Assembly: GCF_024700885.2 (NCBI RefSeq)
Contig: NZ_CP117016.1
Direction: 5' to 3' (one strand)
Length of the DNA stretch: 64,000 nt
From: Escherichia coli
GTDB lineage: Bacteria; Pseudomonadota; Gammaproteobacteria; Enterobacterales; Enterobacteriaceae
The position numbers and the translations under genes are program-made. How positions within the stretch are numbered: the stretch's first letter is position 1; each line of letters starts with the position of its first letter. Under the pieces are notes generated by a model. It had not been told where the DNA came from. It ran no database searches and saw nothing but the letters and a program-made list of their open reading frames with translations. Positions 4,938 through 34,712 of the stretch are shown here, piece after piece.

Positions 4938-7828
<2,891 letters not shown>

Positions 7829-17549: not shown

Positions 17550-18670
17550 TGCGTTTTGTTGATGAATATCGCGCGCCGGAACAGGTGATGCAGTTAATTG
17601 AGCATCTGCGCGAACGTGCTTCACATCTCTCTTACACCGCCGAACGCCCTCTGCGGATTATGGAAGTGTGCGGTGGTCATACCCACGCCATTTTTAAATT
17701 CGGCCTCGACCAGTTGCTGCCGGAAAACGTTGAGTTTATCCACGGTCCCGGTTGCCCGGTGTGTGTACTGCCGATGGGTAGAATCGACACCTGCGTGGAG
17801 ATTGCCAGCCATCCGGAAGTCATCTTCTGTACCTTTGGCGACGCCATGCGCGTGCCGGGGAAACAGGGATCGCTGTTGCAGGCAAAAGCACGCGGTGCCG
17901 ATGTGCGCATCGTTTACTCGCCGATGGATGCGTTGAAACTGGCGCAGGAGAATCCAACCCGCAAAGTGGTGTTCTTCGGCTTAGGTTTTGAAACCACCAT
18001 GCCGACGACGGCCATCACTCTGCAACAGGCGAAAGCGCGTGATGTGCAGAATTTTTACTTCTTCTGCCAGCATATTACGCTTATCCCGACGCTGCGCAGT
18101 TTGCTGGAAGAGCCGGATAACGGTATCGACGCGTTTCTTGCGCCCGGTCACGTTAGTATGGTTATCGGCACTGATGCCTATAATTTTATCGCCAGCGATT
18201 TTCATCGTCCGCTGGTGGTCGCTGGTTTCGAACCCCTTGATCTACTGCAAGGCGTGGTGATGCTGGTGGAGCAGAAAATAGCGGCCCACAGCAAGGTAGA
18301 GAATCAGTATCGTCGGGTGGTGCCGGATGCCGGTAACCTGCTGGCGCAACAGGCGATTGCCGATGTGTTCTGTGTCAACGGCGACAGCGAATGGCGCGGC
18401 TTAGGCGTGATTGAATCTTCTGGTGTACACCTGACGCCGGATTATCAACGATTCGATGCCGAAGCGCATTTCCGCCCGGCACCGCAGCAGGTCTGCGATG
18501 ACCCGCGCGCACGTTGTGGCGAAGTATTAACGGGCAAATGTAAGCCGCATCAATGCCCGCTGTTTGGTAACACCTGTAATCCTCAAACCGCGTTTGGTGC
18601 GCTGATGGTTTCCTCCGAAGGAGCGTGCGCCGCGTGGTATCAGTATCGTCAGCAGGAGAGTGAAGCGTGA
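17549..18670 (+). CDS. hypD: Hydrogenase maturation protein HypD
   Basis: 373-aa ORF with conserved CGxH and CPVC motifs. Confidence 0.92.
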   Translation: MRFVDEYRAPEQVMQLIEHLRERASHLSYTAERPLRIMEVCGGHTHAIFKFGLDQLLPENVEFIHGPGCPVCVLPMGRIDTCVEIASHPEVIFCTFGDAMRVPGKQGSLLQAKARGADVRIVYSPMDALKLAQENPTRKVVFFGLGFETTMPTTAITLQQAKARDVQNFYFFCQHITLIPTLRSLLEEPDNGIDAFLAPGHVSMVIGTDAYNFIASDFHRPLVVAGFEPLDLLQGVVMLVEQKIAAHSKVENQYRRVVPDAGNLLAQQAIADVFCVNGDSEWRGLGVIESSGVHLTPDYQRFDAEAHFRPAPQQVCDDPRARCGEVLTGKCKPHQCPLFGNTCNPQTAFGALMVSSEGACAAWYQYRQQESEA

Positions 18671-19677
18671 ATAATATCCAACTCGCCCACGGTAGCGGCG
18701 GCCAGGCGATGCAGCAATTAATCAACAGCCTGTTTATGGAAGCCTTTGCCAACCCGTGGCTGGCAGAGCAGGAAGATCAGGCACGTCTTGATCTGGCGCA
18801 GCTGGTAGCGGAAGGCGACCGTCTGGCGTTCTCCACCGACAGTTACGTCATTGACCCGCTGTTCTTTCCTGGCGGTAATATCGGCAAGCTGGCGATTTGC
18901 GGCACAGCCAATGACGTTGCGGTCAGTGGCGCTATTCCGCGCTATCTCTCCTGTGGCTTTATCCTCGAAGAAGGATTGCCGATGGAGACACTGAAAGCCG
19001 TAGTGACCAGCATGGCAGAAACCGCCCGCGCGGCAGGCATTGCCATCGTCACTGGCGATACTAAAGTGGTGCAGCGCGGCGCGGCAGATAAACTGTTTAT
19101 CAACACCGCTGGCATGGGCGCAATTCCGGCGAATATTCACTGGGGAGCACAGACGCTAACCGCAGGCGATGTATTGCTGGTTAGCGGTACACTCGGCGAC
19201 CACGGGGCGACTATCCTTAACCTGCGTGAGCAGCTGGGGCTGGATGGCGAACTGGTCAGCGACTGCGCGGTGCTGACGCCGCTTATTCAGACGCTGCGTG
19301 ACATTCCCGGCGTGAAAGCGCTGCGTGATGCCACCCGTGGTGGTGTGAACGCGGTAGTTCATGAGTTCGCGGCAGCCTGCGGTTGCGGTATTGAAATTTC
19401 AGAAGCGGCACTGCCGGTTAAACCTGCTGTGCGCGGCGTTTGCGAACTGCTGGGACTGGACGCCCTTAACTTTGCCAACGAAGGCAAACTGGTGATCGCC
19501 GTTGAACGCAACGCGGCAGAGCAAGTGCTGGCAGCGTTACATTCCCATCCACTGGGAAAAGACGCGGCGCTGATTGGTGAAGTGGTGGAACGTAAAGGTG
19601 TTCGTCTTGCCGGTCTGTATGGCGTGAAACGAACCCTCGATCTACCGCACGCCGAACCGCTTCCGCGTATATGCTAA
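18667..19677 (+). CDS. hypE: Hydrogenase maturation carbamoyl dehydratase HypE
   Basis: 336-aa ORF, PurM-like fold signatures, C-terminal PRIC. Confidence 0.92.
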   Translation: MNNIQLAHGSGGQAMQQLINSLFMEAFANPWLAEQEDQARLDLAQLVAEGDRLAFSTDSYVIDPLFFPGGNIGKLAICGTANDVAVSGAIPRYLSCGFILEEGLPMETLKAVVTSMAETARAAGIAIVTGDTKVVQRGAADKLFINTAGMGAIPANIHWGAQTLTAGDVLLVSGTLGDHGATILNLREQLGLDGELVSDCAVLTPLIQTLRDIPGVKALRDATRGGVNAVVHEFAAACGCGIEISEAALPVKPAVRGVCELLGLDALNFANEGKLVIAVERNAAEQVLAALHSHPLGKDAALIGEVVERKGVRLAGLYGVKRTLDLPHAEPLPRIC

Positions 19678-19750
19678 TAAAATTCTAAATCTCCTATAGT
19701 TAGTCAATGACCTTTTGCACCGCTTTGCGGTGCTTTCCTGGAAGAACAAA

Positions 19751-21829
19751 ATGTCATATACACCGATGAGTGATCTCGGACAACAAGGGTTGTTCGACAT
19801 CACTCGGACACTATTGCAGCAGCCCGATCTGGCCTCGCTGTGTGAGGCTCTTTCGCAACTGGTAAAGCGTTCTGCGCTCGCCGACAACGCGGCTATTGTG
19901 TTGTGGCAAGCGCAGACTCAACGTGCGTCTTATTACGCATCGCGTGAAAAAGACACCCCCATTAAATATGAAGACGAAACTGTTCTGGCACACGGTCCGG
20001 TACGCAGCATTTTGTCGCGCCCTGATACGCTGCATTGCAGTTACGAAGAATTTTGTGAAACCTGGCCGCAGCTGGCCGCAGGTGGGCTATACCCAAAATT
20101 TGGTCACTATTGCCTGATGCCACTGGCGGCGGAAGGGCATATTTTTGGTGGCTGTGAATTTATTCGTTATGACGATCGCCCCTGGAGCGAAAAAGAGTTC
20201 AATCGTCTGCAAACATTTACGCAGATCGTTTCTGTCGTCACCGAACAAATCCAGAGTCGCGTCGTCAATAATGTTGACTATGAGTTGTTATGCCGGGAGC
20301 GCGATAACTTCCGCATCCTGGTTGCCATTACCAACGCGGTGCTTTCCCGCCTGGATATGGACGAACTGGTCAGCGAAGTCGCCAAAGAAATCCATTACTA
20401 CTTCGACATTGACGATATCAGCATCGTCTTACGCAGCCACCGTAAAAACAAACTCAACATCTACTCCACTCACTATCTTGATAAACAACATCCCGCCCAC
20501 GAACAGAGCGAAGTCGATGAAGCCGGAACCCTCACCGAACGCGTGTTCAAAAGCAAAGAGATGCTGCTGATTAACCTCCACGAGCGGGACGATTTAGCCC
20601 CCTATGAACGCATGTTGTTCGACACCTGGGGCAACCAGATTCAAACCTTGTGCCTGTTACCGCTGATGTCTGGCGACACCATGCTGGGCGTGCTGAAACT
20701 GGCGCAATGCGAAGAGAAAGTATTTACCACTACCAATCTGAGCTTACTGCGCCAGATTGCCGAACGTGTGGCAATCGCTGTCGATAACGCCCTCGCCTAT
20801 CAGGAAATTCATCGTCTGAAAGAACGGCTGGTTGATGAAAACCTCGCCCTGACCGAGCAGCTCAACAATGTTGATAGTGAATTTGGCGAGATTATTGGCC
20901 GCAGCGAAGCCATGTACAGCGTACTTAAACAAGTTGAAATGGTGGCGCAAAGTGACAGTACCGTGCTGATCCTCGGTGAAACTGGCACGGGTAAAGAGCT
21001 GATTGCCCGTGCTATCCATAATCTCAGTGGGCGTAATAATCGCCGCATGGTCAAAATGAACTGCGCGGCAATGCCTGCCGGATTGCTGGAGAGCGATCTG
21101 TTTGGTCATGAGCGTGGGGCTTTTACCGGTGCCAGCGCCCAGCGTATCGGTCGTTTTGAACTGGCGGATAAAAGCTCCCTGTTCCTCGACGAAGTGGGCG
21201 ATATGCCACTGGAGTTACAGCCGAAGTTGCTGCGTGTATTACAGGAACAGGAGTTTGAACGTCTCGGCAGCAACAAAATCATTCAGACGGACGTGCGTCT
21301 AATCGCCGCAACTAACCGCGATCTGAAAAAAATGGTCGCCGACCGTGAGTTCCGTAGCGATCTCTATTACCGCCTGAATGTATTCCCGATCCACCTGCCG
21401 CCACTACGCGAGCGTCCGGAAGATATTCCGCTGCTGGCGAAAGCCTTTACCTTCAAAATTGCCCGTCGTCTGGGGCGCAATATCGACAGCATTCCTGCCG
21501 AGACGCTGCGCACCTTGAGCAACATGGAGTGGCCGGGTAACGTACGCGAACTGGAAAATGTCATTGAGCGCGCGGTATTGCTAACACGCGGCAACGTGCT
21601 GCAGCTGTCATTGCCTGATATTGCTTTACCGGAGCCTGAAACGCCGCCTGCCGCAACGGTTGTCGCCCAGGAGGGCGAAGATGAATATCAGTTGATTGTT
21701 CGCGTGCTGAAAGAAACCAACGGCGTGGTTGCCGGGCCTAAAGGCGCTGCGCAACGTCTGGGGCTGAAACGCACGACCCTGCTGTCACGGATGAAGCGGC
21801 TTGGAATTGATAAATCGGCATTGATTTAA
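19751..21829 (+). CDS. fhlA: Formate hydrogenlyase transcriptional activator (sigma-54 dependent)
   Basis: 692-aa ORF starting MSYTPMSDLGQQ; GAF-type N-terminus, AAA+ sigma-54 interaction domain (GETGTGKE, GAFTGA) and C-terminal HTH. Confidence 0.93.
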   Translation: MSYTPMSDLGQQGLFDITRTLLQQPDLASLCEALSQLVKRSALADNAAIVLWQAQTQRASYYASREKDTPIKYEDETVLAHGPVRSILSRPDTLHCSYEEFCETWPQLAAGGLYPKFGHYCLMPLAAEGHIFGGCEFIRYDDRPWSEKEFNRLQTFTQIVSVVTEQIQSRVVNNVDYELLCRERDNFRILVAITNAVLSRLDMDELVSEVAKEIHYYFDIDDISIVLRSHRKNKLNIYSTHYLDKQHPAHEQSEVDEAGTLTERVFKSKEMLLINLHERDDLAPYERMLFDTWGNQIQTLCLLPLMSGDTMLGVLKLAQCEEKVFTTTNLSLLRQIAERVAIAVDNALAYQEIHRLKERLVDENLALTEQLNNVDSEFGEIIGRSEAMYSVLKQVEMVAQSDSTVLILGETGTGKELIARAIHNLSGRNNRRMVKMNCAAMPAGLLESDLFGHERGAFTGASAQRIGRFELADKSSLFLDEVGDMPLELQPKLLRVLQEQEFERLGSNKIIQTDVRLIAATNRDLKKMVADREFRSDLYYRLNVFPIHLPPLRERPEDIPLLAKAFTFKIARRLGRNIDSIPAETLRTLSNMEWPGNVRELENVIERAVLLTRGNVLQLSLPDIALPEPETPPAATVVAQEGEDEYQLIVRVLKETNGVVAGPKGAAQRLGLKRTTLLSRMKRLGIDKSALI

Positions 21830-21873
21830 CAGATGTGGTTATACTCGATCAACATTCAATGAAAGGAGGCAGT

Positions 21874-22302
21874 ATGGCAGTTTCAGCAAGAAATCAATTA
21901 ACCGGAACAGTTAGCGCAGTAGCAATGGGCGCTGTGAATGATGAAGTAGAACTGACGCTGGCAGGTGGTGCAAAACTGGTGGCAATTGTGACTCACAGCA
22001 GCCAGCAGGCTCTTGGTCTGGCAAAAGGGAAAGAAGCGATTGCCCTGATTAAAGCCCCGTGGGTCACGCTGGCAACGGAAGACTGTGGACTGAAATTCTC
22101 TGCTCGCAACCAGTTTGCTGGCAGCGTGTCGACAATCACCGAAGGCGCAGTGAACGCCACTGTCCATATCATAACGGATGCGGGTTTTGAAATTGTGGCA
22201 GTGGTAACAAATGAAAGTCAGGATGAAATGAAACTCACCACTGGCTCGCGCGTTATTGCATTGATCAAAGCATCAGCCATCCTGATTGCCACCAAAGCGT
22301 AA
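21874..22302 (+). CDS. Molbindin-like protein with two tandem TOBE (Mop) domains
   Basis: 142-aa ORF preceded by AGGAGG; two repeats of SARNQ(L/F)xGxV...ALIKA, the molybdate-binding Mop fold. Confidence 0.7.
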   Translation: MAVSARNQLTGTVSAVAMGAVNDEVELTLAGGAKLVAIVTHSSQQALGLAKGKEAIALIKAPWVTLATEDCGLKFSARNQFAGSVSTITEGAVNATVHIITDAGFEIVAVVTNESQDEMKLTTGSRVIALIKASAILIATKA

Positions 22303-22313
22303 ACGCCTTATTT

Positions 22314-22336
22314 GCCGGAGAGTATGGCTCTCCGGC
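22314..22336. terminator. Hairpin between the convergent molbindin gene and ygbA
   Basis: GCCGGAGAG-TATGG-CTCTCCGGC followed by a T-rich run. Confidence 0.6.
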
Positions 22337-22340
22337 AGAT

Positions 22341-22685
22341 TTATTTCTTTGGACGATATTTTTCTGGCAACTCCGGCACCGGACGCTTGTCATCGATGAG
22401 ATGACGCACGGTTAAGATCGGATGACGCCACAGCATTCTCGGCCCGGCCCAACGCATAATCTGTTTCATCTCTTCACGCTTTGCAGGCTGGTAACAGTGC
22501 ACCGGACACTGCTTACAGGCTGGTTTCTCTTCGCCGAACACACATTTATCCAGCCGCTTTTGCGCGTAGGCAAACAGCGCGTCGTAATGCTCCGGCTCCG
22601 CTGACGCCTGCGGGCATTTCGCTTGATAAAGATCGATCATTTTTTTAATCGTCAGTTTTTCACGAGAGATACGCTTGCCGGACAT
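22341..22685 (-). CDS. ygbA: Cysteine-rich small protein YgbA
   Basis: 114-aa ORF with several Cys pairs, in the conserved position between fhlA and mutS. Confidence 0.85.
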   Translation of the reverse strand: MSGKRISREKLTIKKMIDLYQAKCPQASAEPEHYDALFAYAQKRLDKCVFGEEKPACKQCPVHCYQPAKREEMKQIMRWAGPRMLWRHPILTVRHLIDDKRPVPELPEKYRPKK

Positions 22686-22971
22686 GCTGCCTCCACCTCA
22701 TTAAGATGCATTTATATTACAACTTAATCTTAAAGGGCACTATGACTCTAAAGAAGAAGGGTTCGCCAACTGATACAATTTTGCGTACTTGCTTCATAAG
22801 CATCACGCAAAAGCTGCAAAACAGCATCTTTCCCGGAATCACCATCAAGAACTCGCCGTTCGCTTCTTCCCCTGAAATGATTAACTCCGGTATCATGTGC
22901 GCCTTATGTGATTACAACGAAAATAAAAACCATCACACCTCATTTAATATCAGGGAACCGGACATAACCCC

Positions 22972-23021
22972 ATGAGTGCAATAGAAAATTTCGATGCCCA
23001 TACGCCCATGATGCAGCAGTA
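22972..23021 (+). pseudogene. mutS: Orphaned original 5' end of mutS (first 17 codons, [17 protein letters not shown]) displaced by the island
   Basis: Sequence encodes the native MutS N-terminus as I recall it and then diverges abruptly into AT-rich island DNA; the frame ends after 17 further island codons. Confidence 0.8.
22999..23021. repeat. Left copy of the imperfect direct repeat flanking the island (attL candidate)
   Basis: CATACGCCCATGATGCAGCAGTA; 19 of 23 positions match the right copy at 40836-40858, with an identical ATGATGCAGCA core. Confidence 0.65.
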
Positions 23022-23079
23022 CCATTTTTCTATGGTTAACCTGTTGAAATTTAGCAATAAAGTGTTTGGTAAGTAGACT

Positions 23080-23100
23080 CTGGTTTACTGATGGTATACA
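23080..23100. repeat. Tandem CTGGTTTAC / TGGTATACA motifs at the island left end (candidate integrase arm-type sites)
   Basis: The same TGGTATAC/TATACCAG motif recurs three times next to the integrase gene at the right end. Confidence 0.4.
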
Positions 23101-23365
23101 TAACATATAGTTATGTTAGCCAAGAACTCGAACTTAATGTGCCTAACTACAGAATGAAAAGTAACGTTGCGATACCGAAAAAATTTGGTGGCGTAAGGAA
23201 GGAATTGAAGTTCATTCATCTCCGTGAATATCTAAATCAATTTAATAACCAATTAAATAATTAGCTGGCTACAAATAACATTGATCTAATTCAATAATTT
23301 AGGATTATGTATTGGAGCTATTGAAAAAGTTGTGTTATAAAGGAAAAAAATCAAGGGAGATTAAA

Positions 23366-23635
23366 ATGTCTATCGATATCAATAAGTTAAAATCAAAATT
23401 AATTGAAGATTATAAATTCGCTGACGAGATTAGCGATGATGAAATCAATATAGTTTTAAGTGAAATACACAAAAAGGGTGCCTCAACACCAAAAGAAGTA
23501 GACGAAATTGTCTATACGGTATTAGAGGGTAAAAGGCATTATGCTTTCGAAAGTCTGGATACATCCAATACTACATCCCTTGCATTACAGTTAATTCAGG
23601 CGGCAAAGGTATATGCTCAAACACAAGGAAGATGA
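23366..23635 (+). CDS. Hypothetical small acidic protein
   Basis: 89-aa ORF from an ATG preceded by GGGAG; AT-rich island DNA; no recognisable motif. Confidence 0.45.
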   Translation: MSIDINKLKSKLIEDYKFADEISDDEINIVLSEIHKKGASTPKEVDEIVYTVLEGKRHYAFESLDTSNTTSLALQLIQAAKVYAQTQGR

Positions 23636-24401
23636 AAGCATTCACATAGAGAGTAAAAAAAAACTTGATATGGAATTGCAGTTTTTAATAGATGAGATGC
23701 AAGCTGGGAAGGATAAAAACACTATTCTTCCACTGTTGAATAAACTGCAATTACAGTTTTCGATCTATGTTACTGATTTTGAAAATTTCATCGTTCGAGT
23801 TTCAGAAAATGGGTATTATCGTTCAAAAGGTGAAATAAAAGATGTTTTAATTAGCGTAGAAAATTTTTTAAATTCAAATGCAGTTGTTGCAGAAGCAATA
23901 AATACAGTTTCAAGCATATTCAATTTACCCCAATGTTATCAAGAAGGAAATTTCATAACAACTGCTCAAATAATATTAAGAACACATCAGAAAGAAAAAG
24001 CCGAGGAATTATCTCAAATTTATAAGGATAAAGGATTATCAACAAATGGCTTTGATAGTAAAGAAAAAATTTATTTGAACAGACACGGGTTTGATATGAC
24101 CAGATTTATTTCGTTTATATTAGGATTAATTTGTATACTTTATTTTTTATATGAATACAATATAGGCAATATAAACAATGGTATAAGTTGGTTTAATTAT
24201 AGATTGTTTGTTCCAACTGGATTAGGAGCAATAATATTTTCACTATTTCCGACAACCATGCAATTAAAATTTAGAGCAGGAGTGACAGCCACTGGAATTG
24301 TCGCATTTATTATATTTTTTTATACTGTCAATCCAGCAAAAGTTCCTGATTTTCAACTTCATAATATTGATAGCAATCAATCATCAGAAAAAAACAACTG
24401 A
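23613..24401 (+). CDS. Hypothetical protein, soluble N-terminal domain with C-terminal transmembrane helices
   Basis: 262-aa ORF overlapping the upstream ORF by 23 nt; three hydrophobic helices in the last 90 residues. Confidence 0.5.
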   Translation: MLKHKEDESIHIESKKKLDMELQFLIDEMQAGKDKNTILPLLNKLQLQFSIYVTDFENFIVRVSENGYYRSKGEIKDVLISVENFLNSNAVVAEAINTVSSIFNLPQCYQEGNFITTAQIILRTHQKEKAEELSQIYKDKGLSTNGFDSKEKIYLNRHGFDMTRFISFILGLICILYFLYEYNIGNINNGISWFNYRLFVPTGLGAIIFSLFPTTMQLKFRAGVTATGIVAFIIFFYTVNPAKVPDFQLHNIDSNQSSEKNN

Positions 24402-24448
24402 TATCCAAGCGGATATCAGTTTAGATCTTAAAAGGAAAAAAATCCAAA

Positions 24449-24943
24449 GTGAAATTTATAGCATATGCGTTCTTGTCATTTACTATCGCACCAATAATTG
24501 GCATAATTATTGGAATTCCATTTGATAAATACTTACTCAAAAACTATCCAGTAGTTCTTTTCACAGTAATAATTATTTTCTCGTCCTTAGGAATCTACTC
24601 TCTTTACTTGTATAAAAAATCATACAAATATGTTAATGATGCTGTTTTAGCTATCTTTACTGGTTGGGTTGCATTGACATACTTACTCACGGGAGAAAAA
24701 ACAAGTGAGATAATCCCCTCGGAGAAACTAATTGAAACACACCCATTAATGTATTATCTAATAATATTAAAATTAACTATTGTTGCAAATGGGCTTTTGG
24801 CTAAGATATTTATTACATTAAACGAATTATATCATGCTCGTAAAGCTGAAAACAAAAGTGGGAAATATACTGATGTTTTAAAAATGACTATTTCCAGCAT
24901 TAAATCTTTTTTTAATTCTCAGAAGGACGGAGTCAAAAAGTAG
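24449..24943 (+). CDS. Hypothetical polytopic membrane protein
   Basis: 164-aa ORF with GTG start and about four hydrophobic helices. Confidence 0.45.
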   Translation: MKFIAYAFLSFTIAPIIGIIIGIPFDKYLLKNYPVVLFTVIIIFSSLGIYSLYLYKKSYKYVNDAVLAIFTGWVALTYLLTGEKTSEIIPSEKLIETHPLMYYLIILKLTIVANGLLAKIFITLNELYHARKAENKSGKYTDVLKMTISSIKSFFNSQKDGVKK

Positions 24944-25153
24944 AACAACCCCCATAGGAATTATTAATGCATTCATTGAAATAATAGCAGCAAAAACCAC
25001 TGCTAAATAATCATTCTTTGTGTCATAAAACAAAAACACAACAATATTTAAAAATAACACAAAGAGATAAAAAAGCATATCTTTAATATTCATAACAGCC
25101 TCCTTTTTTCTAATTTGATAATTTACAAATATCTTAATATAACGAAAAGTCAA
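24878..25153 (-). CDS. Hypothetical small membrane protein (uncertain)
   Basis: 91-aa hydrophobic ORF; its 3' end overlaps the preceding plus-strand ORF convergently, so one of the two may be spurious. Confidence 0.3.
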   Translation of the reverse strand: MTFRYIKIFVNYQIRKKEAVMNIKDMLFYLFVLFLNIVVFLFYDTKNDYLAVVFAAIISMNALIIPMGVVLLFDSVLLRIKKRFNAGNSHF

Positions 25154-25244
25154 CTTACCCGATAAAAAATAGTTATTAGAACACCTTAAACTGATAATTA
25201 CATTAATAAATGCGAGTGATGAAATTTTTGAGTGAGATCATAAA

Positions 25245-25568
25245 TTGTTGAGGCGTAAAGTTGTTGATATACCTGCTGTTCTGGTAAGTACTGCCATAAT
25301 AAAGGGCTGGTCTCCATCTGGTTTACTGCTTATATTTGTAGCTATGCTACTTAAGTGCTCTGTCGTTATATTGGGTATACATAATGCCCAAAAATCATTA
25401 TCGGATATTATTGAATCATCTAATAAGACGATGATTTTATTCACGAAAGATAATGCCAATGATGATGACGAAGCATTAACCAACCGTATTAATCAGATCA
25501 CAACCGAAGCTTTAACCAAACTCAGTAATAAAAAAGTTGATGCTGAAAAAACCTTGAATAAGCTCTAA
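25245..25568 (+). CDS. Hypothetical membrane-anchored protein (uncertain start, TTG)
   Basis: 107-aa ORF with one hydrophobic segment; an alternative 81-aa ORF exists on the opposite strand. Confidence 0.3.
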   Translation: MLRRKVVDIPAVLVSTAIIKGWSPSGLLLIFVAMLLKCSVVILGIHNAQKSLSDIIESSNKTMILFTKDNANDDDEALTNRINQITTEALTKLSNKKVDAEKTLNKL

Positions 25569-25876
25569 TGGTTGATTTTCATTGGTGTATCAGTCTGGTC
25601 TATGTTTGTTTTATATCAATTCAAAGATAACATAATCCCAGTTATTGAATTCGCCTATGAGCATATAAAGAGTTTCGTTACTTATTTATTAAGCAAGGGC
25701 TAACTCATCGAAGCTCCGCTTCTTTGAGTTCCCTTGTTTTTCGCCCTTCGGTTGAAAAAGAAAGTCAAAGTCTAACCTAACTCATTGACATGAATTGCAT
25801 TTCCACTATAAATATATAATGTGTTGCAAAGGAATTGCTTACTTTAAAGCGAATAAAAATATAAAAAGGAGTTTAT

Positions 25877-26260
25877 ATGGGTAAAATAATAACATTGTCG
25901 TATACAAATAATTTTAAGCCTATTAGCGATAATAAATCTCAATCATTGCGAATACACTGTGTAAGTGTACGATTAAATAAAGAAGAGTTAGAGCTTCTCA
26001 ATGCAAGCCGTGGTGATAAACGCAAAGGTGAATGGCTTCGCATGGCATCACTTCAAAAGCTTCCTCCGACCATTCCTACAATCAATTTAGAAGTTTGGCA
26101 ATCATTGTCTGATATATCTCAAAAGCTAAACCGTCTAATAATCCACCTTGATACTAAAAGCAGTAATAGTGAACTGACGAAAACAGAGATCTTCGCTGTT
26201 AAAAAGCAGATTAAAGAGCTTCGCTCATGTCTTACAGGTTCTGATCCGTCCGTAAGGTAG
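25877..26260 (+). CDS. MobC-like mobilisation (relaxosome accessory) protein
   Basis: 127-aa ORF with the MobC-type core HCVSVRLNKEELELLNA...GEWLRM, immediately upstream of a relaxase gene. Confidence 0.65.
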   Translation: MGKIITLSYTNNFKPISDNKSQSLRIHCVSVRLNKEELELLNASRGDKRKGEWLRMASLQKLPPTIPTINLEVWQSLSDISQKLNRLIIHLDTKSSNSELTKTEIFAVKKQIKELRSCLTGSDPSVR

Positions 26261-26268
26261 TTATTCGC

Positions 26269-27450
26269 ATGAAAGGAATGCAGAAGATCAAAAGGGGTAA
26301 GAGCTTCTCAGGTGTGGTTCTCTATGTGTTAAAGCCAGGCTCACACCATAGAACCGTTCCAGAAGTAATTGGTGGCAACATGACAGGTGATTGCTCACAA
26401 GAGTTAATCGACGAATTTAACCTTACGAAAGAGCTTCGCTCAGATGTGGCAAAACCTGTTTGGCACAATTCACTTCGATTACCCCAGGGAGAATCTCTTA
26501 CCAACGAACAATGGAAACGAATTGCTGACGATTACATGAAGCGAATGGGGTTCGGTGATACACACCTCCGTTGCTATGTTCTTCATGATGATCAGGCTGG
26601 TCAGCACATACACATTATTGCAAGTCGCATAGATCTCAATGGCGGGAAGCTCTACTTGGGTAGGAACGAAAACCTCATCAGCACCCGCATAATCAGTGAA
26701 CTCGAATTCGCTCATGGTCTGACAGTGACCAAGACAGCCTCTTCAATTGCACCAAAGCAACCGAAGCGGAAGAGAATCTCTCGCAACGAACAGATGCTAT
26801 CAGAACGAACTGGTGTTCCCTGCCCCAAGAAGTCCCTTCAACAGATCATAGATAAAAGTTTGGCAGATACACCTGACCTTTTAACTTTTATCAAGAGGCT
26901 GGAAGAAGCAGAAGTAGGCTGGACGGCGAATGTCGCAAGCACAGGTAAAATGAACGGGTTCTCTTTCGAATACACAGGAATAGCTTTCAAAGCTTCCCAG
27001 TTAGCCAAGAGCTATTCATGGGCAAATCTTCAAAAGCAGCTTAACTACAACCCGGATCACTTAGAAGCTCTGCGAAAGGATATACAGACCAAGGAAGTTC
27101 CTGCTCCTGTTCCTGTTCCTGTTCCTGTTCCTGTTCCTGTTCCTGTTCCTGTTCCTGCAGAACCGATAGCAAGAACGGCCGCCCAGATCGAAAGCATAAG
27201 TGAAAAAATTGCCGAACTGGAACTACGACTCAAAGAAGACAGAAGAAACGAAATCGTAGAAAAGATTCTTCAAAAGAATGCAGCCAAACAGCAAAAGCAT
27301 CTCAGGCTCACCGGCTGGATTCCCTTTTTACAACGGCTCATAGAGCTTCTCAGAAAATATGGAAGGAGCATCCTCCACAAGGTTCCTACAAACTTCTTAG
27401 AAGTCTATTCAACCCATCATCTGAAACCTACAAGAAAAATTCGTTTATAG
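26269..27450 (+). CDS. Mobilisation relaxase (MobA/VirD2-like nuclease domain) with internal (PV)n linker
   Basis: 393-aa ORF with N-terminal Tyr region (GVVLYVLKPG) and HDDQAGQHIHII three-histidine motif typical of relaxases. Confidence 0.75.
   Translation: MKGMQKIKRGKSFSGVVLYVLKPGSHHRTVPEVIGGNMTGDCSQELIDEFNLTKELRSDVAKPVWHNSLRLPQGESLTNEQWKRIADDYMKRMGFGDTHLRCYVLHDDQAGQHIHIIASRIDLNGGKLYLGRNENLISTRIISELEFAHGLTVTKTASSIAPKQPKRKRISRNEQMLSERTGVPCPKKSLQQIIDKSLADTPDLLTFIKRLEEAEVGWTANVASTGKMNGFSFEYTGIAFKASQLAKSYSWANLQKQLNYNPDHLEALRKDIQTKEVPAPVPVPVPVPVPVPVPVPAEPIARTAAQIESISEKIAELELRLKEDRRNEIVEKILQKNAAKQQKHLRLTGWIPFLQRLIELLRKYGRSILHKVPTNFLEVYSTHHLKPTRKIRL
27100..27153 (+). repeat. In-frame hexanucleotide tandem repeat (CCTGTT)n, nine units with seven perfect, encoding a Pro-Val/Pro-Ala linker
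   Basis: CCTGCT-(CCTGTT)x7-CCTGCA read directly inside the relaxase ORF. Confidence 0.9.
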
Positions 27451-27702
27451 ACAGCTAGTTATAAACACCTTTCGTAACATAACTTAATTACCTAGTGATA
27501 AATTTGTGTTTAGTCAAGAAAATATTGATCGTTATTACAGATCGATATCAATATTATGATAGCCTAAACCTATCGTAACTTAGACATCGATCGGTACAAG
27601 TGATTTTACTAAAGATAATTATTCATCGAGAATCCCTGAAAAGAGCCTGATGATTTTTAAGCAATAGCAGTATCAGGAACCGATTGTAAAAATGGAGTTA
27701 AT

Positions 27703-27981
27703 ATGAATAACGAAACCATTAAGTGTCCGTTCTGCTTCAAAGAGAGCCAGTTTGGTGTCCGTGTTTGTACCGGCTGTCATTCAACCATCAAATATGGCGA
27801 AGTTTCACCTTGGTTATCTTTACTAATAGGATTTATTTTATTAGCCATTGCTTACATCATACTTTATATAAGTCAAAGTTTTTTAGTAGCTCTCGTTATT
27901 CTTTTAACATTAATGATTTCTACAAGATTGTATATTCGTAAAAAATTTGCACACAGAGCAGTTTTCACTCACCAACATTAA
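27703..27981 (+). CDS. Hypothetical zinc-ribbon membrane protein
   Basis: 92-aa ORF with CPFC...CTGC at the N-terminus followed by two hydrophobic helices. Confidence 0.45.
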   Translation: MNNETIKCPFCFKESQFGVRVCTGCHSTIKYGEVSPWLSLLIGFILLAIAYIILYISQSFLVALVILLTLMISTRLYIRKKFAHRAVFTHQH

Positions 27982-27999
27982 GAACAAAAGGGATTTAAC

Positions 28000-28314
28000 A
28001 TGAAAGCATATGCTATGCTAACAATCATTCTTTCTACTTTTCTATTAACTGCATGTAATAGTGAACCAAGTCAAGATGATATCTACAATGCATTCAAAAG
28101 TGTTGTAGATAAAACCAATGCCAGCATGAAAGCTTTTGATTCAAGAGTGTCAGAAAAAGACCTTTTAAAAATCGATTATGTAAAAAAAGTAAGCTGTTCG
28201 GAAGAAGCAAACAATGTTTACAACTGCATTGTCGATGCTTCTATTAGCAACAATAAACAGACGAAACCAATTAAATTAGTTAAAGCTGATGGTGTCTGGA
28301 AAGAAGTTCAGTAG
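28000..28314 (+). CDS. Hypothetical lipoprotein
   Basis: 104-aa ORF with signal peptide and lipobox (LLTAC) at the N-terminus. Confidence 0.5.
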   Translation: MKAYAMLTIILSTFLLTACNSEPSQDDIYNAFKSVVDKTNASMKAFDSRVSEKDLLKIDYVKKVSCSEEANNVYNCIVDASISNNKQTKPIKLVKADGVWKEVQ

Positions 28315-28366
28315 TAGCCTATATCAAGAAGTCTCTTTTAGCCCCTGCACAGGGGCTTTTTATTGC

Positions 28367-28801
28367 CTATAACCTGACGGCTCTTACGCGAACTTCATGG
28401 GTTAACTCTTTCTCGATTACTTTCATTTCATATTGTGCTCTGACAGTAGCATAGATTTCTTCTGCCATTTCTTGATTGCTATCGATATAGTTAACGAGAG
28501 AGTTTAGCTCCCTGATAACAGCTTCCTTATTGTTTAATCGTTGTAGTAGATTGCTTGTTAGGCTTTTGTATACAGAGCTAAACATTGCCATGACATTGTC
28601 TATGTTACGATTTGATTTGGAATAAATTTTTTTAGGATAGAAATATTTTAAATGGTATCCCACAAAAATTAAGTAAAGCTGATATGAAAAACTTTTATCA
28701 TGTGGCTGATATCGTTTTGATATGTATTTATCTACAATGATAACAAGCTGTTCTTCCAGTGTCATCACTGAATTATAATTGGTTTTGTTCATAAGTTGCA
28801 T
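28367..28801 (-). CDS. Hypothetical protein
   Basis: 144-aa ORF in AT-rich island DNA; no recognisable motif. Confidence 0.4.
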   Translation of the reverse strand: MQLMNKTNYNSVMTLEEQLVIIVDKYISKRYQPHDKSFSYQLYLIFVGYHLKYFYPKKIYSKSNRNIDNVMAMFSSVYKSLTSNLLQRLNNKEAVIRELNSLVNYIDSNQEMAEEIYATVRAQYEMKVIEKELTHEVRVRAVRL

Positions 28802-28894
28802 CCTTGCAAAATTTGATTTTGTCTTCCTGACAATACATATATAATTACCACATATTTAAAAAACATCAATAGACAAAACCTATTGATGTCAAAA

Positions 28895-29308
28895 TTATTT
28901 TTTGTTTTTGGGAAAAATTTGATCTTCTCTAATACATTTACCATATGCAACCATTTGAAGATCTCTAACCATAAGTAGAAGCCTGTTATTTTCACTAACT
29001 AACCTCGAATTTTCTGTTTCTAATTTACTGATTTTATTCGAAGCATAGGCAAGACTTTGAGGACTTTTAATATGCTTAACAGTTTCACCTTTAGTTCTCT
29101 TTTTCTGCTGATATGCATAAGCTATTACTGTATGTCTTGAAAGAGCCTGTCTCGTTGGTTTTTTACCGAAATGATCCTCTACGGAATCACAAAGACTGAC
29201 CCAAGTTAAATCGCCTTCCCAGCCATTTATTTTATCGAGAACGAATTCAATATCTTCCTTGTTAAACTTTTTACTCATTATGTTCTCCTCTAAGATAATA
29301 ACTAACAA
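28895..29308 (-). CDS. Small coiled-coil protein co-operonic with the recombinase trio (real start possibly MSKKFNKED at 29278)
   Basis: 137-aa ORF overlapping the stop of the upstream recombinase; C-terminal heptad-like KISKLETENSRLVSENNRLLLMVRDLQ. Confidence 0.5.
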   Translation of the reverse strand: MLVIILEENIMSKKFNKEDIEFVLDKINGWEGDLTWVSLCDSVEDHFGKKPTRQALSRHTVIAYAYQQKKRTKGETVKHIKSPQSLAYASNKISKLETENSRLVSENNRLLLMVRDLQMVAYGKCIREDQIFPKNKK

Positions 29309-30917
29309 TATGATTTATAATTTTACTAACTTCTTGGATTTCCTTTTCAACATAATTCGCTTTCTGTGAATTATATTGGCTTCTGTATAAATTATTCTTT
29401 TCTTCAAGCGTTTGTAAATGGTCTTTAATTTTGCAAATAATATCATCCTTACTCCCTCCACCTAAATCAGAAATCATTTCATCAGCAAATAATACTCTTC
29501 GTTCGTTTTGTCGCAACTCCTCCCAAGTTCGGTTATCATACACATTATTTTGTTCAACATTTTTCCTCCCTGACCAAAAAGCTATTTCTATATCAGAGAG
29601 CATAGCTCTTTGAGCAAGAGTGTTTAAAAGATGTCTTGGCTGATGACTACTAAAAATCTCTTTCATACCATTGGGTTGTAATGTTTTATGTCGTTGAAAA
29701 AAATTTAAGGTAGTTTCTTTTTCTGACCTTTTTTTAAAATCAGCAATAAACATCTTTTTATTTGCGGGTAAGACACAGAATAAATCAATTCCTTTCTTTA
29801 AATGTAATTGATCTTTATTTAGGATTAACAATCTATTACTAAGGTTTATAGATTTTGAAAATTCATCCCAAGATTTTGTTTTATCGCTATAATTAAAAAC
29901 TTCATTCCAAAATTCTTTTGCACTAAGAATCCCACTCTCTACCCTCATTAATATATTTTTAGTTTTAACATTGAAGCAGTCCATACAGTTTAGATTTAAA
30001 AGCTTATACAACTTTGTATGAAAATATCGTCCATTCTCATCAGTCTCTAAACTCTTATAAAACTCCAATTCTCCTTTTTCTCGTAGGGTAGCTATGCACC
30101 TTGCCGTTTGTGATAATACCCTTAATCTTTTAATGGCTAATTTTGCTATTGAATGCATATTCCTTGGAATCCACTTTATACTTTCACCATAGCCTTTTGC
30201 ACTATGATAACGAATGCCATAGGAGCCTTTCCCCTCTATGTCGTTCCCTTCAACTTCACAATCCACCTCAAGACTCAGGACTTCTGATATTCGTGTTGGA
30301 GCACAAAGAAGCAGTGCGATGATAGATGTTGTAAATATATCTCTTTGGCTTTTATCATTAGAACTAAAAACCCTACCAACAAGATCTATGACTTCCTCTT
30401 CTGGTAACTTATTTTTAATTTCTTTTTGCCCTATAAGATCTCTTACAGCTTTATTTCTAATTATTCTAAGCCTGGAGTTAAACTTACTTAATTTTGGATT
30501 TATTATGTTATTTATAGCTAACACTTCTAAAATATTCTTTAATGCCTTTTCAATAGCCCCCGCACGACTATTAGAATATTTCTTTTCTACTTGGAATAAA
30601 ATGTTGTTGATAACCTCAGAATTAATATTAACAATATGTGGTTCTACATTCAAAGTGAAGAATGAACTTTCCATAATTTTTATGACCGCCAAATAAAGTA
30701 ATGATTTACTGAGATTAGGGAAACACTCTCTATATATAATAACCTTTGATAATTGTTGAAAATGCGCTCCCATGTCTTTATCTTTTTTTATATGATTGTT
30801 ATTTTTAAATGAAACCCCTCTACCCCATGACAAATCATCCCAATTTATAATATTTTCTTTTTTTGCCTGTATCCTTACTTCATTAGCTAAAACATCATAA
30901 TTATTATAATGACTCAT
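29271..30917 (-). CDS. Tyrosine recombinase family protein (third of three tandem paralogues)
   Basis: 548-aa ORF; candidate catalytic residues in order: R in CAPTRISEVLSL, HQPRHLL (HxxR), W in FWSGRK, Y in NNVYDNR. Confidence 0.6.
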   Translation of the reverse strand: MSHYNNYDVLANEVRIQAKKENIINWDDLSWGRGVSFKNNNHIKKDKDMGAHFQQLSKVIIYRECFPNLSKSLLYLAVIKIMESSFFTLNVEPHIVNINSEVINNILFQVEKKYSNSRAGAIEKALKNILEVLAINNIINPKLSKFNSRLRIIRNKAVRDLIGQKEIKNKLPEEEVIDLVGRVFSSNDKSQRDIFTTSIIALLLCAPTRISEVLSLEVDCEVEGNDIEGKGSYGIRYHSAKGYGESIKWIPRNMHSIAKLAIKRLRVLSQTARCIATLREKGELEFYKSLETDENGRYFHTKLYKLLNLNCMDCFNVKTKNILMRVESGILSAKEFWNEVFNYSDKTKSWDEFSKSINLSNRLLILNKDQLHLKKGIDLFCVLPANKKMFIADFKKRSEKETTLNFFQRHKTLQPNGMKEIFSSHQPRHLLNTLAQRAMLSDIEIAFWSGRKNVEQNNVYDNRTWEELRQNERRVLFADEMISDLGGGSKDDIICKIKDHLQTLEEKNNLYRSQYNSQKANYVEKEIQEVSKIINHIVSYYLRGEHNE

Positions 30918-32274
30918 TATTCATGCCCTCCTTGTTGAGCAATTCGATTATTTTATTTATTTTACATTCTAACATTGTGAATAAGTCCGTTAGGATTTCA
31001 AAGTCTGCTTGCTTCGTATAATCTGCTATTAATACTCCAGTAAGCTTTTTTATGATTATCAAATCGTCAACCAATCTAAGGGTAATGTCGTCACTGTTTT
31101 TTAAAAATGAGGAAATATAAGGGCTTACTAACTCATTTATTGCCTGATCTATTCTGAATGAAAACTCTTCATTGTTTTTTGCATACGACAATACTGATTT
31201 CAAATTGCTATGATCTAAAGCTTTTGCTATCGTACCTAATCCATAACCTTTAAGTGCAAGCCTTGTGGCTAATGTAACCCTAAGTTGCCGAGAGTTAATC
31301 TTTTTATTTTTATCTTTACTTACCCTTTGGCAAATGGCCTGAACCCTACCGGTTATCCTCTTAGAACTCATATGCAAATTGAAGAAGTTATTTTCATATA
31401 ATTTATCAAGTTTGTAAGTCGAGTTAAAAAAACAAGGATCAATAAAGAGGGGTAAATTGTTTAATTCATCTTCACTTAATATATCGCCTACCTCACCCTG
31501 CACAAAAACCTTAACTACTGATTTAAGCTCTGATAGTGAATTGAACAAATTATCCCCTATACGCAATTCGGAAAAATCAGTTCTGAAACTATCTCCTTGT
31601 TTTAATCTGGGTATGTTTAAAAAATTACCATTTTCTTTGATATAAAGATCCTTCCTTTTTAATTGAGCGATCTGCATTGGTCTTCGCCCCGAATATATCA
31701 TCAGCATGACTAAAAGGTAGTCATTCATAGTCATATTTCCATCATTGTATTCCTTTGTCATGCCCCCAATTAGGTTCTTCAGTTCGTATTCAGATAATGG
31801 TCTTAAAGACTCTTTTCGCTCAATATATGCAGTTGTCTTGTTGGGTTTAGTTACTTTCCATTTTAAAATCAAATCCAGCATTTCTTGATCTATGAATTCA
31901 TTATTTAACTCATAATGTTTTATTATAAAATACTTTAAACTTTCAACATGTGTATAGCTTATTTTATAATATGCATTGTAAAATCTATTTAGTAATCCAT
32001 AGTCAAATTTGTCCAACTTCCCTTGATTAAAAACAACGAGTTTTTTTATAGAAAAGAAAAACTTTCTCGCATAAGCTGAACTAAAATTCACAGCAGTATA
32101 GGCAAGGGTCTCTTTTATAGATGCTAATAAGATAGCATTAATGTTTCTTTCAAAATATGAGAAATTTAATTTAACATCTTTGCTGAGAAACCAAACACTA
32201 TCATGTAAACTAAAATTATTTCTGCTGTCTTTTGCCTTTAATACCAAGTAATTTTCTAACATTAATGCTTTCAT
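30904..32274 (-). CDS. Tyrosine recombinase-like protein with degenerate catalytic motifs (second of three)
   Basis: 456-aa ORF; SGRRPMQIAQL (box I Arg), SRQLRVTLATR, LDHSNLKSVLSYAKN; overlaps both neighbours. Confidence 0.5.
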   Translation of the reverse strand: MKALMLENYLVLKAKDSRNNFSLHDSVWFLSKDVKLNFSYFERNINAILLASIKETLAYTAVNFSSAYARKFFFSIKKLVVFNQGKLDKFDYGLLNRFYNAYYKISYTHVESLKYFIIKHYELNNEFIDQEMLDLILKWKVTKPNKTTAYIERKESLRPLSEYELKNLIGGMTKEYNDGNMTMNDYLLVMLMIYSGRRPMQIAQLKRKDLYIKENGNFLNIPRLKQGDSFRTDFSELRIGDNLFNSLSELKSVVKVFVQGEVGDILSEDELNNLPLFIDPCFFNSTYKLDKLYENNFFNLHMSSKRITGRVQAICQRVSKDKNKKINSRQLRVTLATRLALKGYGLGTIAKALDHSNLKSVLSYAKNNEEFSFRIDQAINELVSPYISSFLKNSDDITLRLVDDLIIIKKLTGVLIADYTKQADFEILTDLFTMLECKINKIIELLNKEGMNNESL

Positions 32275-33508
32275 CTATTTCTCCTTCAATTTTATTTATG
32301 ATTTCTTGATTCACTAAATCTGCCTCTTCAAAAGCTTTTAAAGTTTCTTCACTAATATAACGATTGTTATAAATCAAAGCCGTTTTGGAGTTCATTTTCC
32401 ACCCCATTCTTACGCATCTGATTCTATCTAATTGGGTCAATCTATATTGATCAGTGACTCCTATGTATTTTAAACTGTAAATATAGTTCCATGTGTGCCG
32501 TAGACAATGCCCTGTGAAATTTTGAAAAGATACTCCATTGAATTCAATTCTACTTATTTGCTTAATTACTTTATGATATGCACTTATTGACAGAGGAAAT
32601 CCTTCCGTAGGACCAGATTTTTGAGTAATAAATAAGTAATTATGATTTAAGCTTTTCGAATAGAAAGACCTATCATTGTCTATATATGAAGAGATTTGCA
32701 TAGACAATTTTTTGCTAATATTTAATTCTCGTTCAAATGTTTTAACAAGTGGTTGAAAAACTCTTGGGTCTGCTGGATCATTTATTCTTTTACAAACTTT
32801 CAGATATCTTTTTTCCTTGTTAAAATCAGTAATTTTCAAGTTCAATAGCTCACCCCCTCGCATTCCAGTTTCCTGAAGAATGAGGATTATGAGTTGATTT
32901 CTTTTACGGCAACTGATATCAACAAATGGATTGTATTGGCTTTCAGGTTCTATACATTGCAATAGAATGTCTAAGCTTTCTTTTTCTAATGATTTAAAAT
33001 CATTATTCAAATAGAATTGAGAGTTTAATTTTGGTTTATGTTTACGAAAAAGCAAACTAACACTTTTTGATATAATGTTTGTCTCATATATTGTAGTGCT
33101 AAAATATGATTCATAAATCCAAGAAATGTAGGAACTAATTACTGTCAATCTATAATGAAGATTTTCTTGATTGATCTTTTTATACTCTTTTATATCTATA
33201 ACTTTTTGTTTTTTATTTTTAACTCTAAGTTGTTCTGACAATGAATAGATTTCAGTAAAGCTAAGGAAGGTCTTAGATCTAATTCTTTCGATAAGATTTA
33301 TATTTGATTCTATTAGATAATTTTCAAAAGCAATCAAAGTGTAAGCATTTCTCAATACTGTATTAAATGACTTATTCTTTTGCTTATATAGCAAACTAAG
33401 ATATATATTTTGATAATACAATGGCAAACCGTTTTTTGAATCCAAAATCATACAAAATCTGCTTCCATCACTCGCCATTAACTTCTTTACTGAATATCTC
33501 CTATTCAT
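32216..33508 (-). CDS. Tyrosine recombinase family protein (first of three; start set at MNRRYSVKKL after a GGGGTGA RBS, ORF extends to 33547)
   Basis: GMRGGELLNL (box I Arg), HCLRHTW (HxxR), GWKMNS, ALIYNNRY (Tyr) in canonical order. Confidence 0.65.
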   Translation of the reverse strand: MNRRYSVKKLMASDGSRFCMILDSKNGLPLYYQNIYLSLLYKQKNKSFNTVLRNAYTLIAFENYLIESNINLIERIRSKTFLSFTEIYSLSEQLRVKNKKQKVIDIKEYKKINQENLHYRLTVISSYISWIYESYFSTTIYETNIISKSVSLLFRKHKPKLNSQFYLNNDFKSLEKESLDILLQCIEPESQYNPFVDISCRKRNQLIILILQETGMRGGELLNLKITDFNKEKRYLKVCKRINDPADPRVFQPLVKTFERELNISKKLSMQISSYIDNDRSFYSKSLNHNYLFITQKSGPTEGFPLSISAYHKVIKQISRIEFNGVSFQNFTGHCLRHTWNYIYSLKYIGVTDQYRLTQLDRIRCVRMGWKMNSKTALIYNNRYISEETLKAFEEADLVNQEIINKIEGEIDESINVRKLLGIKGKRQQK

Positions 33509-33626
33509 TATCACCCCATAATTTATTTTTTTATTTATAGGTAACATAATTTTTTAGCAAGTTACAAATTTATTTGCTATTATTTTCAATGACCTTATTA
33601 CTCGCGACTCTAATAAAGAATCGGCC

Positions 33627-33652
33627 ATATATTCACCTTAAGGTGAATATAT
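33627..33652. promoter_or_regulatory. Perfect palindrome ATATATTCACC-TTAA-GGTGAATATAT between the recombinase operon and the tRNA genes
   Basis: 11-bp arms with a 4-bp spacer read directly; function (operator or recombination site) not determined. Confidence 0.5.
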
Positions 33653-33680
33653 ATTCCCTCTTGACGCTCCAAAAAACAAT

Positions 33681-33757: not shown

Positions 33758-33761
33758 GAAA

Positions 33762-33836: not shown

Positions 33837-33847
33837 AAACATAAAAT

Positions 33848-34711: not shown

Positions 34712-34712
34712 T

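Follow-up and report, generated by a model that had tools for sequence, protein, structure and literature searches.

Escherichia coli K-12 carries no gene between fhlA, which encodes the sigma-54 activator of the formate regulon, and its neighbour ygbA. The stretch of E. coli DNA analysed here (64,000 nt of contig NZ_CP117016.1, RefSeq assembly GCF_024700885.2; hereafter the window) does carry one, a reading frame of 142 codons to which we refer as mop, and this difference raises two questions: what the protein might do, and whether the gene was gained in the lineage of the window's strain or lost from the reference strain. A sequence-only reading of the locus had described the product as a tandem-TOBE molbindin with a strong ribosome-binding site, lying next to the formate-hydrogenlyase (FHL) regulon and missing from K-12, and had supposed that it might be lineage-specific cargo.

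The coding sequence occupies window positions 21874 to 22302 on the plus strand, from an ATG start to a TAA stop. A Shine-Dalgarno sequence, AGGAGG (21864-21869, plus strand), lies 4 nt ahead of the ATG, and its GGAGG core is kept in 16 of the 16 genera and species compared; on the quality of this site the earlier description is correct. The mechanically longest open reading frame would begin at a GTG at 21835 and give 155 aa; this start was rejected on the N-termini of the orthologues, the position of the ribosome-binding site and the RefSeq CDS of 429 nt. All orthologues have in common the N-terminus M-[AST]-VSARNQ, beginning at the ATG. The frame is not a chance one: more than 40 species have an orthologue that is likewise precisely 142 aa long, and every pairwise comparison gave a dN/dS within 0.02-0.12. 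Two matches to the Pfam TOBE profile (PF03459, E 8.7e-34) and two to TIGR00638 'Mop' (139.8 bits against a cutoff of 55) place tandem Mop/TOBE domains at residues ~1-70 and 73-142, recovering the di-Mop architecture read from the letters, and the Pfam and NCBIfam profiles found no domain besides these two in the protein. RefSeq names the gene 'TOBE domain-containing protein' or 'molybdopterin-binding protein'.

The best solved relative of the protein is ModG of Azotobacter vinelandii (1H9J; E 5.1e-33, query residues 1-140 aligned to chain residues 4-143), to which BLASTP gives 49% identity over 138-140 residues without gaps; further matches were to the di-Mop domain of E. coli ModE (E 1e-15) and to single-domain Mop/Tub proteins (E 1e-9). 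An AlphaFold (AF2) model of the monomer, made from a 21-sequence alignment, has a mean pLDDT of 95.3 and a pTM of 0.86, and when this model was submitted to Foldseek the top match was again 1H9J (TM 0.95, rmsd 1.3 Å, 142 columns), with the ModE di-Mop domain next (TM ~0.9). According to a structural study from 2025, the oxyanion sites of Tub, a Mop homologue, resemble those in Mop, ModE and ModG (PMC11980592). At the type-2 site of Tub, Mop and ModG the ligand residues are Ser4 and Lys60 through their side chains, Arg6 and Ala61 through their backbone, and Ser40 of the neighbouring subunit, and at the type-1 site they are the backbone of Ala20-Val21-Asn22 from three subunits (PMC11980592). Query residues 2-68 align to Tub 2-68 at 40% identity, so that the Tub numbering carries over. 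Repeat 1 accordingly has S4, R6, T40, K60 and A61 at the type-2 site, with Thr replacing Ser40, and A20-V21-N22 at the type-1 site; the corresponding residues of repeat 2 are S76, R78, T112, K132 and A133, and A92-V93-N94. Across the 21-sequence alignment, the oxyanion-site residues of both repeats are invariant or at least 90% conserved. ModG itself (1H9J, 1H9K, 1H9M) is likewise a protein of ~140 aa consisting of two Mop/TOBE domains only, with the SARN motif and the Thr/Lys ligands in both repeats. In architecture, sequence, modelled fold and predicted ligand residues alike, the mop product is a ModG-type molbindin. Its host, E. coli, is not a nitrogen fixer, unlike A. vinelandii.

The di-Mop domain of E. 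coli ModE (1H9R, 1H9S, 1O7L) has a homologous tandem Mop fold, at 34-37% identity with the E and TM values given above, and its ligands, which we take to be S126, R128, T163, S166 and K183, match S4, R6, T40, S43 and K60 of the mop protein. These five residues are invariant in the 21-sequence alignment, and the SARNQ motif is common to the mop protein and the first repeat of ModE. The second repeat of ModE, however, reads NADNQ and has N instead of K, whereas that of the mop protein retains its ligands, and because ModE has lost ligand residues there we regard the mop protein as ModG-like rather than ModE-like in sequence. ModE also possesses an N-terminal winged-helix DNA-binding domain, which the mop protein lacks; identity with ModE was rejected on the length of 142 aa and on a score against NF007957 of 87.8 bits (cutoff 369), obtained over profile positions 124-261 only. 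Single-domain Mop/Tub proteins (C. pasteurianum MopII, 1GUG; H. influenzae Mop; E. limosum Tub, 9BEB) are of ~70 aa and form hexamers, whereas the mop protein, as ModG, fuses two domains in each chain; each of its repeats can be aligned with them residue for residue and has the same type-1 and type-2 residues. The C-terminal TOBE domains of ABC ATPases (ModC, WtpC, MalK, CysA) adopt the same fold and give weak sequence matches, at 11-21% identity; an ABC-transporter ATPase was rejected as an identity for want of an ATPase domain (TIGR02142, for example, scores 45.5 bits against a cutoff of 285). Among the structural matches there are tungstate-bound structures of both the ModE di-Mop domain and MopII.

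Directly 5' of mop lies fhlA (19751-21829, plus strand; NF011958, 1547 bits), so that the position claimed for the gene, adjoining the FHL regulon, holds. On the other side ygbA (22341-22685, minus strand; NF007713/NF007716) is convergent with mop and encodes a product of 114 aa; the K-12 form has 117 aa and another C-terminal tail. The fhlA-mop spacer measures 44 nt (21830-21873, plus strand) and, in a cross-genus alignment, was found to hold a conserved GGTTATACT box, which the consensus promoter scan did not pick up. Inside this box the sequence TATACT (21840-21845) resembles a -10 hexamer, and the form GGYTATACT is kept in Escherichia, Citrobacter and Kluyvera as well as in translocated Salmonella copies. 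We considered a sigma-70 promoter of mop's own at this position and hold it as a possibility only, there being no acceptable -35 element at 16-18 nt; a consensus scan of 21400-22800 found no sigma-70 consensus promoter. The scan for terminators found none in the spacer. Its sole terminator-like site between fhlA and ygbA is a hairpin with 13-bp arms and a 5-nt loop followed by TTATTTCTTT (22310-22350, plus strand), which was also recovered by an inverted-repeat search and overlaps the ygbA stop codon; on its sequence, this intrinsic-terminator-like hairpin closes the fhlA-mop unit. Because there is no terminator before mop and a strong hairpin with a T-run after it, the gene is most likely transcribed as the last of a hypABCDE-fhlA unit, and it may in addition have a weak promoter, situated in the spacer or at the 3' end of fhlA. 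No Rfam RNA family was found in or near the gene.

Control of mop by ModE was examined by comparing the K-12 modA operator, CGTTATATTGTCGCCTACATAACG, with the fhlA-mop spacer, and was rejected. Only the left half of the operator has a counterpart (GGTTATAC); the right half agrees at 2 of 9 positions at native spacing, or at 4 of 9 if shifted by one, and in Citrobacter the figures are 5/8 and 4/9. Judged against the modA operator, there is no recognisable ModE operator upstream of mop, which in this respect and in its place after fhlA differs from modG of A. vinelandii: the latter is associated with mod genes and reported to be ModE-regulated, according to the title of a work cited in PMC11980592. 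This difference concerns the genomic setting of one characterised ModG and not the structural definition of the type.

At ~0.7-1 kb downstream of mop begins an AT-rich mobile island of ~17.8 kb, integrated inside the first codons of mutS, to whose product it gives a new N-terminus. The cargo of this island comprises a Gabija system, four tyrosine recombinase genes or candidates, a relaxase and three tRNA genes, and integrases related to its own adjoin mutS in 49 genomes.

Within E. coli, mop with its flanks is present in 1892 of 5426 complete genomes, always on the chromosome and in one copy each; in 1889 of these carriers the copy has a coverage of at least 80%. The alternative state was detected with a 111-nt probe spanning the K-12 fhlA/ygbA junction, and this empty junction, with the probe fully covered, occurs in 3505 of the 5426 genomes. 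The two states together account for 5397 genomes, and mop is a natural polymorphism of the species, with ~35% of genomes having the gene and ~65% lacking it. Comparison with the reference strain agrees with the sequence-only reading: in MG1655 only 36 bp, with no gene in them, separate the stop codons of fhlA and ygbA. Among the record titles listed, carriers include O25b:H4-ST131, O166:H15 and O7:H15 'ST70', and non-carriers include K-12 and O157:H7. The allele found in the window is identical in about two dozen strains.

Beyond E. coli, mop orthologues of 142 aa and 79-98% identity occur across the Enterobacteriaceae. Individual protein look-ups returned the order hypABCDE-fhlA-TOBE in E. 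fergusonii, an Escherichia-like metagenome contig, Raoultella, Pluralibacter, Kluyvera and Enterobacter, and mop stands right behind fhlA also in Klebsiella, Kosakonia and others. A synteny scan covered 41 Enterobacteriaceae loci, with one genome per species, using tblastn of FhlA, HypE, YgbA and MutS. At 36 of these loci fhlA ends a few tens of nucleotides upstream of mop on the same strand, as in E. albertii (98% aa identity), Escherichia sp. MOD1-EC7003 of the cryptic clade (95%) and at least six Citrobacter species (91-94%). Three loci, two from Phytobacter and one from Kosakonia sp. S29, have hypE and a 12-15-codon 3' stub of fhlA upstream of mop, and at the other two, in Raoultella sp. 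BIGb0138 and Enterobacter sp. BIGb0383, the upstream genes are ascF-ascB, the whole hyc-hyp-fhlA block being gone and an fhlA stub being retained in one case. The downstream neighbour differs among loci (ygbA, sitABCD and others), so that the conserved unit is fhlA then mop. At the five loci without intact fhlA the deletions end just upstream of mop, and survival of the gene there suggests that it has a value independent of FhlA and that some promoter activity resides in the fhlA 3' end or the spacer. In some Salmonella strains, mop homologues (87-89% aa identity) occur in fimbrial/IS island contexts and not behind fhlA; Salmonella was rejected as a synteny outgroup, since copies in such contexts are uninformative for ancestry. 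With two species lacking hyc-hyp-fhlA at this locus, three loci behind an fhlA stub, and the Salmonella islands, the link of mop to FHL is not an obligatory one.

Did mop then arrive between fhlA and ygbA by horizontal transfer, as cargo specific to the lineage of the window's strain? That K-12 lacks it, as do 65% of complete E. coli genomes, would fit this, as would the close homologues in IS-associated Salmonella islands, which indicate that the gene can move, and the marked difference between the two E. coli haplotypes in the terminator and the ygbA 3' end. Against it, the slot behind fhlA is occupied by the same gene in E. albertii, the cryptic clade, E. fergusonii, several Citrobacter and ~30 further Enterobacteriaceae. 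Within Escherichia, moreover, the synonymous divergence of mop tracks that of fhlA and ygbA: between the window and ST131, dS is 0.078 for mop, 0.138 for fhlA and 0.043 for ygbA; the respective values are 0.33, 0.62 and 0.33 against E. albertii, and 0.23, 0.20 and 0.39 against the cryptic clade. A repeat search of 21700-22450 returned short, chance-level repeats only, and no meaningful flanking repeats, IS, integrase or mobility genes were found at mop; an 8-nt GCATTGAT repeat (21818 and 22258) was considered as the boundary of a mobile cassette and rejected, since it would yield a junction absent from K-12. There is no drop in G+C, which is 0.53 and 0.48 in 1-kb segments over mop compared with ~0.30 in the neighbouring island, and the empty junction is uniform throughout the 3505 genomes that have it. 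Insertion as cargo is consequently very unlikely, and this part of the sequence-only reading is set aside; the shared slot across genera, the congruent dS, the lack of repeats and mobility genes and the even G+C together indicate that mop is an ancestral gene, vertically inherited within Escherichia. Simple vertical descent from E. fergusonii was rejected, however, the dS between the E. coli and E. fergusonii genes being ~3.5 for mop against 0.26 for hypE. A sliding comparison of the two species showed the whole fhlA-mop-ygbA segment to be ~80% identical, with hypE close, so that the anomaly is segmental and not a transfer specific to mop.

As mop is ancestral, the derived state within E. coli is a ~470-bp deletion in K-12-type lineages rather than an insertion in the window's strain, and the junction sequences point the same way. 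The segment missing from K-12-type genomes is ~470 bp long and corresponds roughly to 21830-22303 of the window, that is, to the spacer and the ORF. Both of its boundaries lie just past a stop codon (TAAC, TAAAC), the exact breakpoints being blurred by divergence in the hairpin region. In K-12 a diverged homologue of the post-mop hairpin sits directly after fhlA, and a K-12-like variant of the hairpin is found 3' of mop in C. amalonaticus, which fits a deletion that spared the terminator. Because a single junction is common to K-12-type genomes, the data argue for one event, later inherited or spread, by which K-12 and ~65% of E. coli lost the spacer and ORF and kept the terminator. Losses in K-12-type E. 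coli, the many Enterobacteriaceae species missing from the scan and one locus (L053) that looks truncated could also be taken as signs that mop no longer has a function and is decaying towards disappearance. This is scarcely credible for a gene with dN/dS of 0.02-0.12, intact at 142 codons in more than 40 species and full length in 1889 of 1892 E. coli copies, whose ligand residues and ribosome-binding site are conserved.

The explanation we favour, with a probability of about three in four, is that mop encodes a cytoplasmic ModG-type oxyanion-binding protein, ancestral in the hyp-fhlA cluster and likely a molybdate buffer, which was lost in K-12-type E. coli. ModG is a trimer with eight molybdates and functions in Mo homeostasis (PMC11980592). 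By analogy, with two Mop/TOBE domains in each chain, a trimer of the mop protein would be a pseudo-hexamer of Mop domains and would bind several molybdate or tungstate ions at its subunit interfaces. Because the gene is probably transcribed with hypABCDE-fhlA, its expression would be expected to rise in anaerobic, formate-rich conditions, when the molybdo-selenoenzyme formate dehydrogenase H (FDH-H) is made, and the protein would then be likely to hold or buffer intracellular molybdate for molybdenum-cofactor synthesis. Such a role would be useful but dispensable, because K-12 makes active FHL without a mop gene, and for the same reason any contribution of mop to FHL would be modest or conditional. 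Molybdenum supply matters to the formate regulon in two ways, since fdhF and hyc reach full expression only when ModE-molybdate acts alongside FhlA and formate, and since FDH-H requires the molybdenum cofactor (PMC3149613). A literature search found no paper on the mop gene, or on a TOBE/Mop gene linked to fhlA.

Two other functions deserve to be weighed against molybdate buffering. Across genera mop is paired tightly with a regulator gene, fhlA, and not with structural genes, which might mean that the product is a regulatory molbindin, in effect the ModE sensor without its DNA-binding domain; loaded with molybdate, the di-Mop protein would act in trans on FhlA, or would compete with ModE for molybdate, and so tune the formate regulon (hyc, fdhF, hyp) or modABC to the supply of Mo. 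Its homology to the ModE sensor domain (E 1e-15, TM ~0.9) is in keeping with such a role, as are the dependence of hyc and fdhF expression on molybdate via ModE (PMC3149613) and the description of Azotobacter ModG as a homeostasis factor and not a pure store (PMC11980592). We nevertheless consider it unlikely: mop is retained at the five loci that have lost fhlA, as well as in Salmonella islands remote from that gene, K-12 has molybdate-dependent regulation of hyc without mop, and the protein gives no sign of an interaction surface. It is also doubtful that the fhlA-mop pairing reflects a direct coupling, in which the molbindin would be a molybdate reporter or donor, serving either transcription that depends on FhlA or the maturation of FDH-H. 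The other function is that of a tungstate sink, in which the protein would chiefly sequester tungstate and thereby shield the maturation of molybdoenzymes (FDH-H, nitrate reductases) from its antagonism in the gut. Sequence and structure cannot tell molybdate from tungstate in Mop/TOBE proteins; TOBE proteins bind both oxyanions, a Mop homologue serves a gut microbe as a physiological tungstate store, and ModG-type architectures are common among predicted W-users (PMC11980592). The tungstate-bound ModE di-Mop and MopII structures are in line with this, but the genomic context is a molybdoenzyme regulon, and no TupABC, WOR or other tungsten-specific gene adjoins mop in the loci examined. A tungstate sink thus seems quite unlikely, and it is compatible with molybdate buffering as the main explanation.

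The protein family, the fold, the probable ligand and a generic RefSeq annotation were already known, and to that extent the gain is incremental; what is mildly new is the conserved place of the gene at the end of hyp-fhlA, the status of K-12 as a deletion variant, and the 35%/65% polymorphism. These results correct a K-12-centred view of the locus, in that the ancestral enterobacterial hyp-fhlA cluster ends with a ModG-type gene and the reference strain is the deletion variant. To our knowledge, K-12 has no stand-alone cytoplasmic molybdate/tungstate-binding protein, whereas about one third of E. coli, ST131 included, encode a predicted one. The natural presence/absence polymorphism permits isogenic-style comparisons, and presence of mop could affect the molybdenum economy of the cell, FDH-H/FHL activity at low Mo, and sensitivity to tungstate. 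Should the coupling of fhlA and mop prove true, it would imply strain-level differences in hydrogen and formate metabolism and in the modABC response to scarce molybdate or to tungstate, and it would be relevant to the old puzzle of why hyc transcription requires molybdate, as well as to the tungstate-based suppression of gut Enterobacteriaceae.

The region downstream of the mop gene, which encodes the tandem TOBE/Mop molbindin of the window (21874-22302, + strand), takes two forms in E. coli, as seen when window positions 22303-22352 are compared with positions 6418-6470 of the K-12 locus (L001). The terminator hairpin differs sharply between the mop-bearing haplotype (GCCGGAGAG/CTCTCCGGC) and the K-12 haplotype (GCCGGACAG/CTGTCCGGC), the difference being a compensatory change in the stem, and the C-terminus of YgbA reads ...RPKK in the window (114 aa) and ...RPKKPHE in K-12 (117 aa). 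The fhlA and ygbA genes that flank this dimorphic terminator are 97-100% identical between the two. Positions 2721-6812 of the E. fergusonii locus (L003) were also compared with window positions 18667-22685. Here hypE is near-identical to its E. coli counterpart (dN 0.001, dS 0.26), whereas the 3' half of fhlA, the mop gene and much of ygbA are only approximately 70-88% identical, and dS for the mop gene is approximately 3.5; divergence therefore changes sharply between hypE and fhlA. On sequence comparison, this step is consistent with segmental replacement through recombination near the mutS hotspot.

The mop gene is also found without an intact fhlA beside it. In some Salmonella enterica (L005, L006, L009 and L010), a copy 87-89% identical to that of the window lies elsewhere than at fhlA, in island contexts with fimbrial-usher genes and insertion-sequence remnants, and one such copy adjoins a YedY/YedZ-like molybdoenzyme pair. 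These copies retain the same approximately 45 nt of upstream sequence, including a GGYTATACT box and the ribosome-binding site. Loci L027, L043, L047, L052 and L055, from Raoultella sp., Enterobacter sp. and Phytobacter/Kosakonia, have lost fhlA or the entire hyc-hyp-fhlA block through deletion in at least three separate events, each ending just upstream of the mop gene, and a stub comprising the last 12-15 codons of fhlA is left in four of the five loci.

On the other side of ygbA, the window carries an AT-rich mobile island (30-34% GC) of approximately 17.8 kb, at approximately 23019-40855, which is inserted within the 5' coding end of mutS and not simply in the interval between ygbA and mutS. 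The native mutS start and first ~16 codons (MSAIENFDAHTPMMQQ) persist as a stub from 22972 at the left end of the island; at the right end, the island contributes a new 5' end to a rebuilt mutS ORF beginning at 40788, so that MutS in the window has a new, island-derived N-terminal start sequence. The left (22996-23018) and right (~40833-40855) junctions are accompanied by imperfect att repeats, CATACGCCCATGATGCAGCAG and CACACTCCTATGATGCAGCAA. This style of integration resembles that of other elements that replace the 5' end of their target, such as SXT in prfC and the dusA-specific islands. Strain 1190 has a mop gene identical to that of the window, yet lacks the island.

Among the mobility genes of the island, a tyrosine recombinase gene (39192-40763, - strand) adjoins the mutS junction. 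Two others on the same strand overlap each other (30904-32274 and 32216-33547) and are followed by an ORF of 548 aa (29271-30917, - strand), for which a Pfam search returned no match; together, this pair and the ORF (29271-33547) may constitute a RIT-like module of three recombinases. The gene at 26269-27450 (+ strand) encodes a MobA/VirD2 relaxase. Within the island lies a complete Gabija anti-phage system (34713-38548, - strand). Its GajA (36560-38548, - strand) combines AAA_15 and OLD-like TOPRIM domains and matches the PADLOC model at E = 1.9e-240, and its GajB (34713-36560, - strand; E = 2.6e-198) is a UvrD-type helicase. The island also contains three tandem tRNA-like genes (33681-33910, + strand), two with strong scores of 66-68 bits and a third, weak or partial, that scores 34 bits.

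A search with the integrase/mutS junction (window 40560-40860) against 5426 complete E. coli genomes found 49 in which mutS is abutted by a related tyrosine recombinase gene. Identity to the query is at least 95% in nine, including a 100% match in MLI114 (NZ_CP117013.1), and only 80-90% in 39. These matches suggest that islands of one family use the 5' end of mutS as their target.
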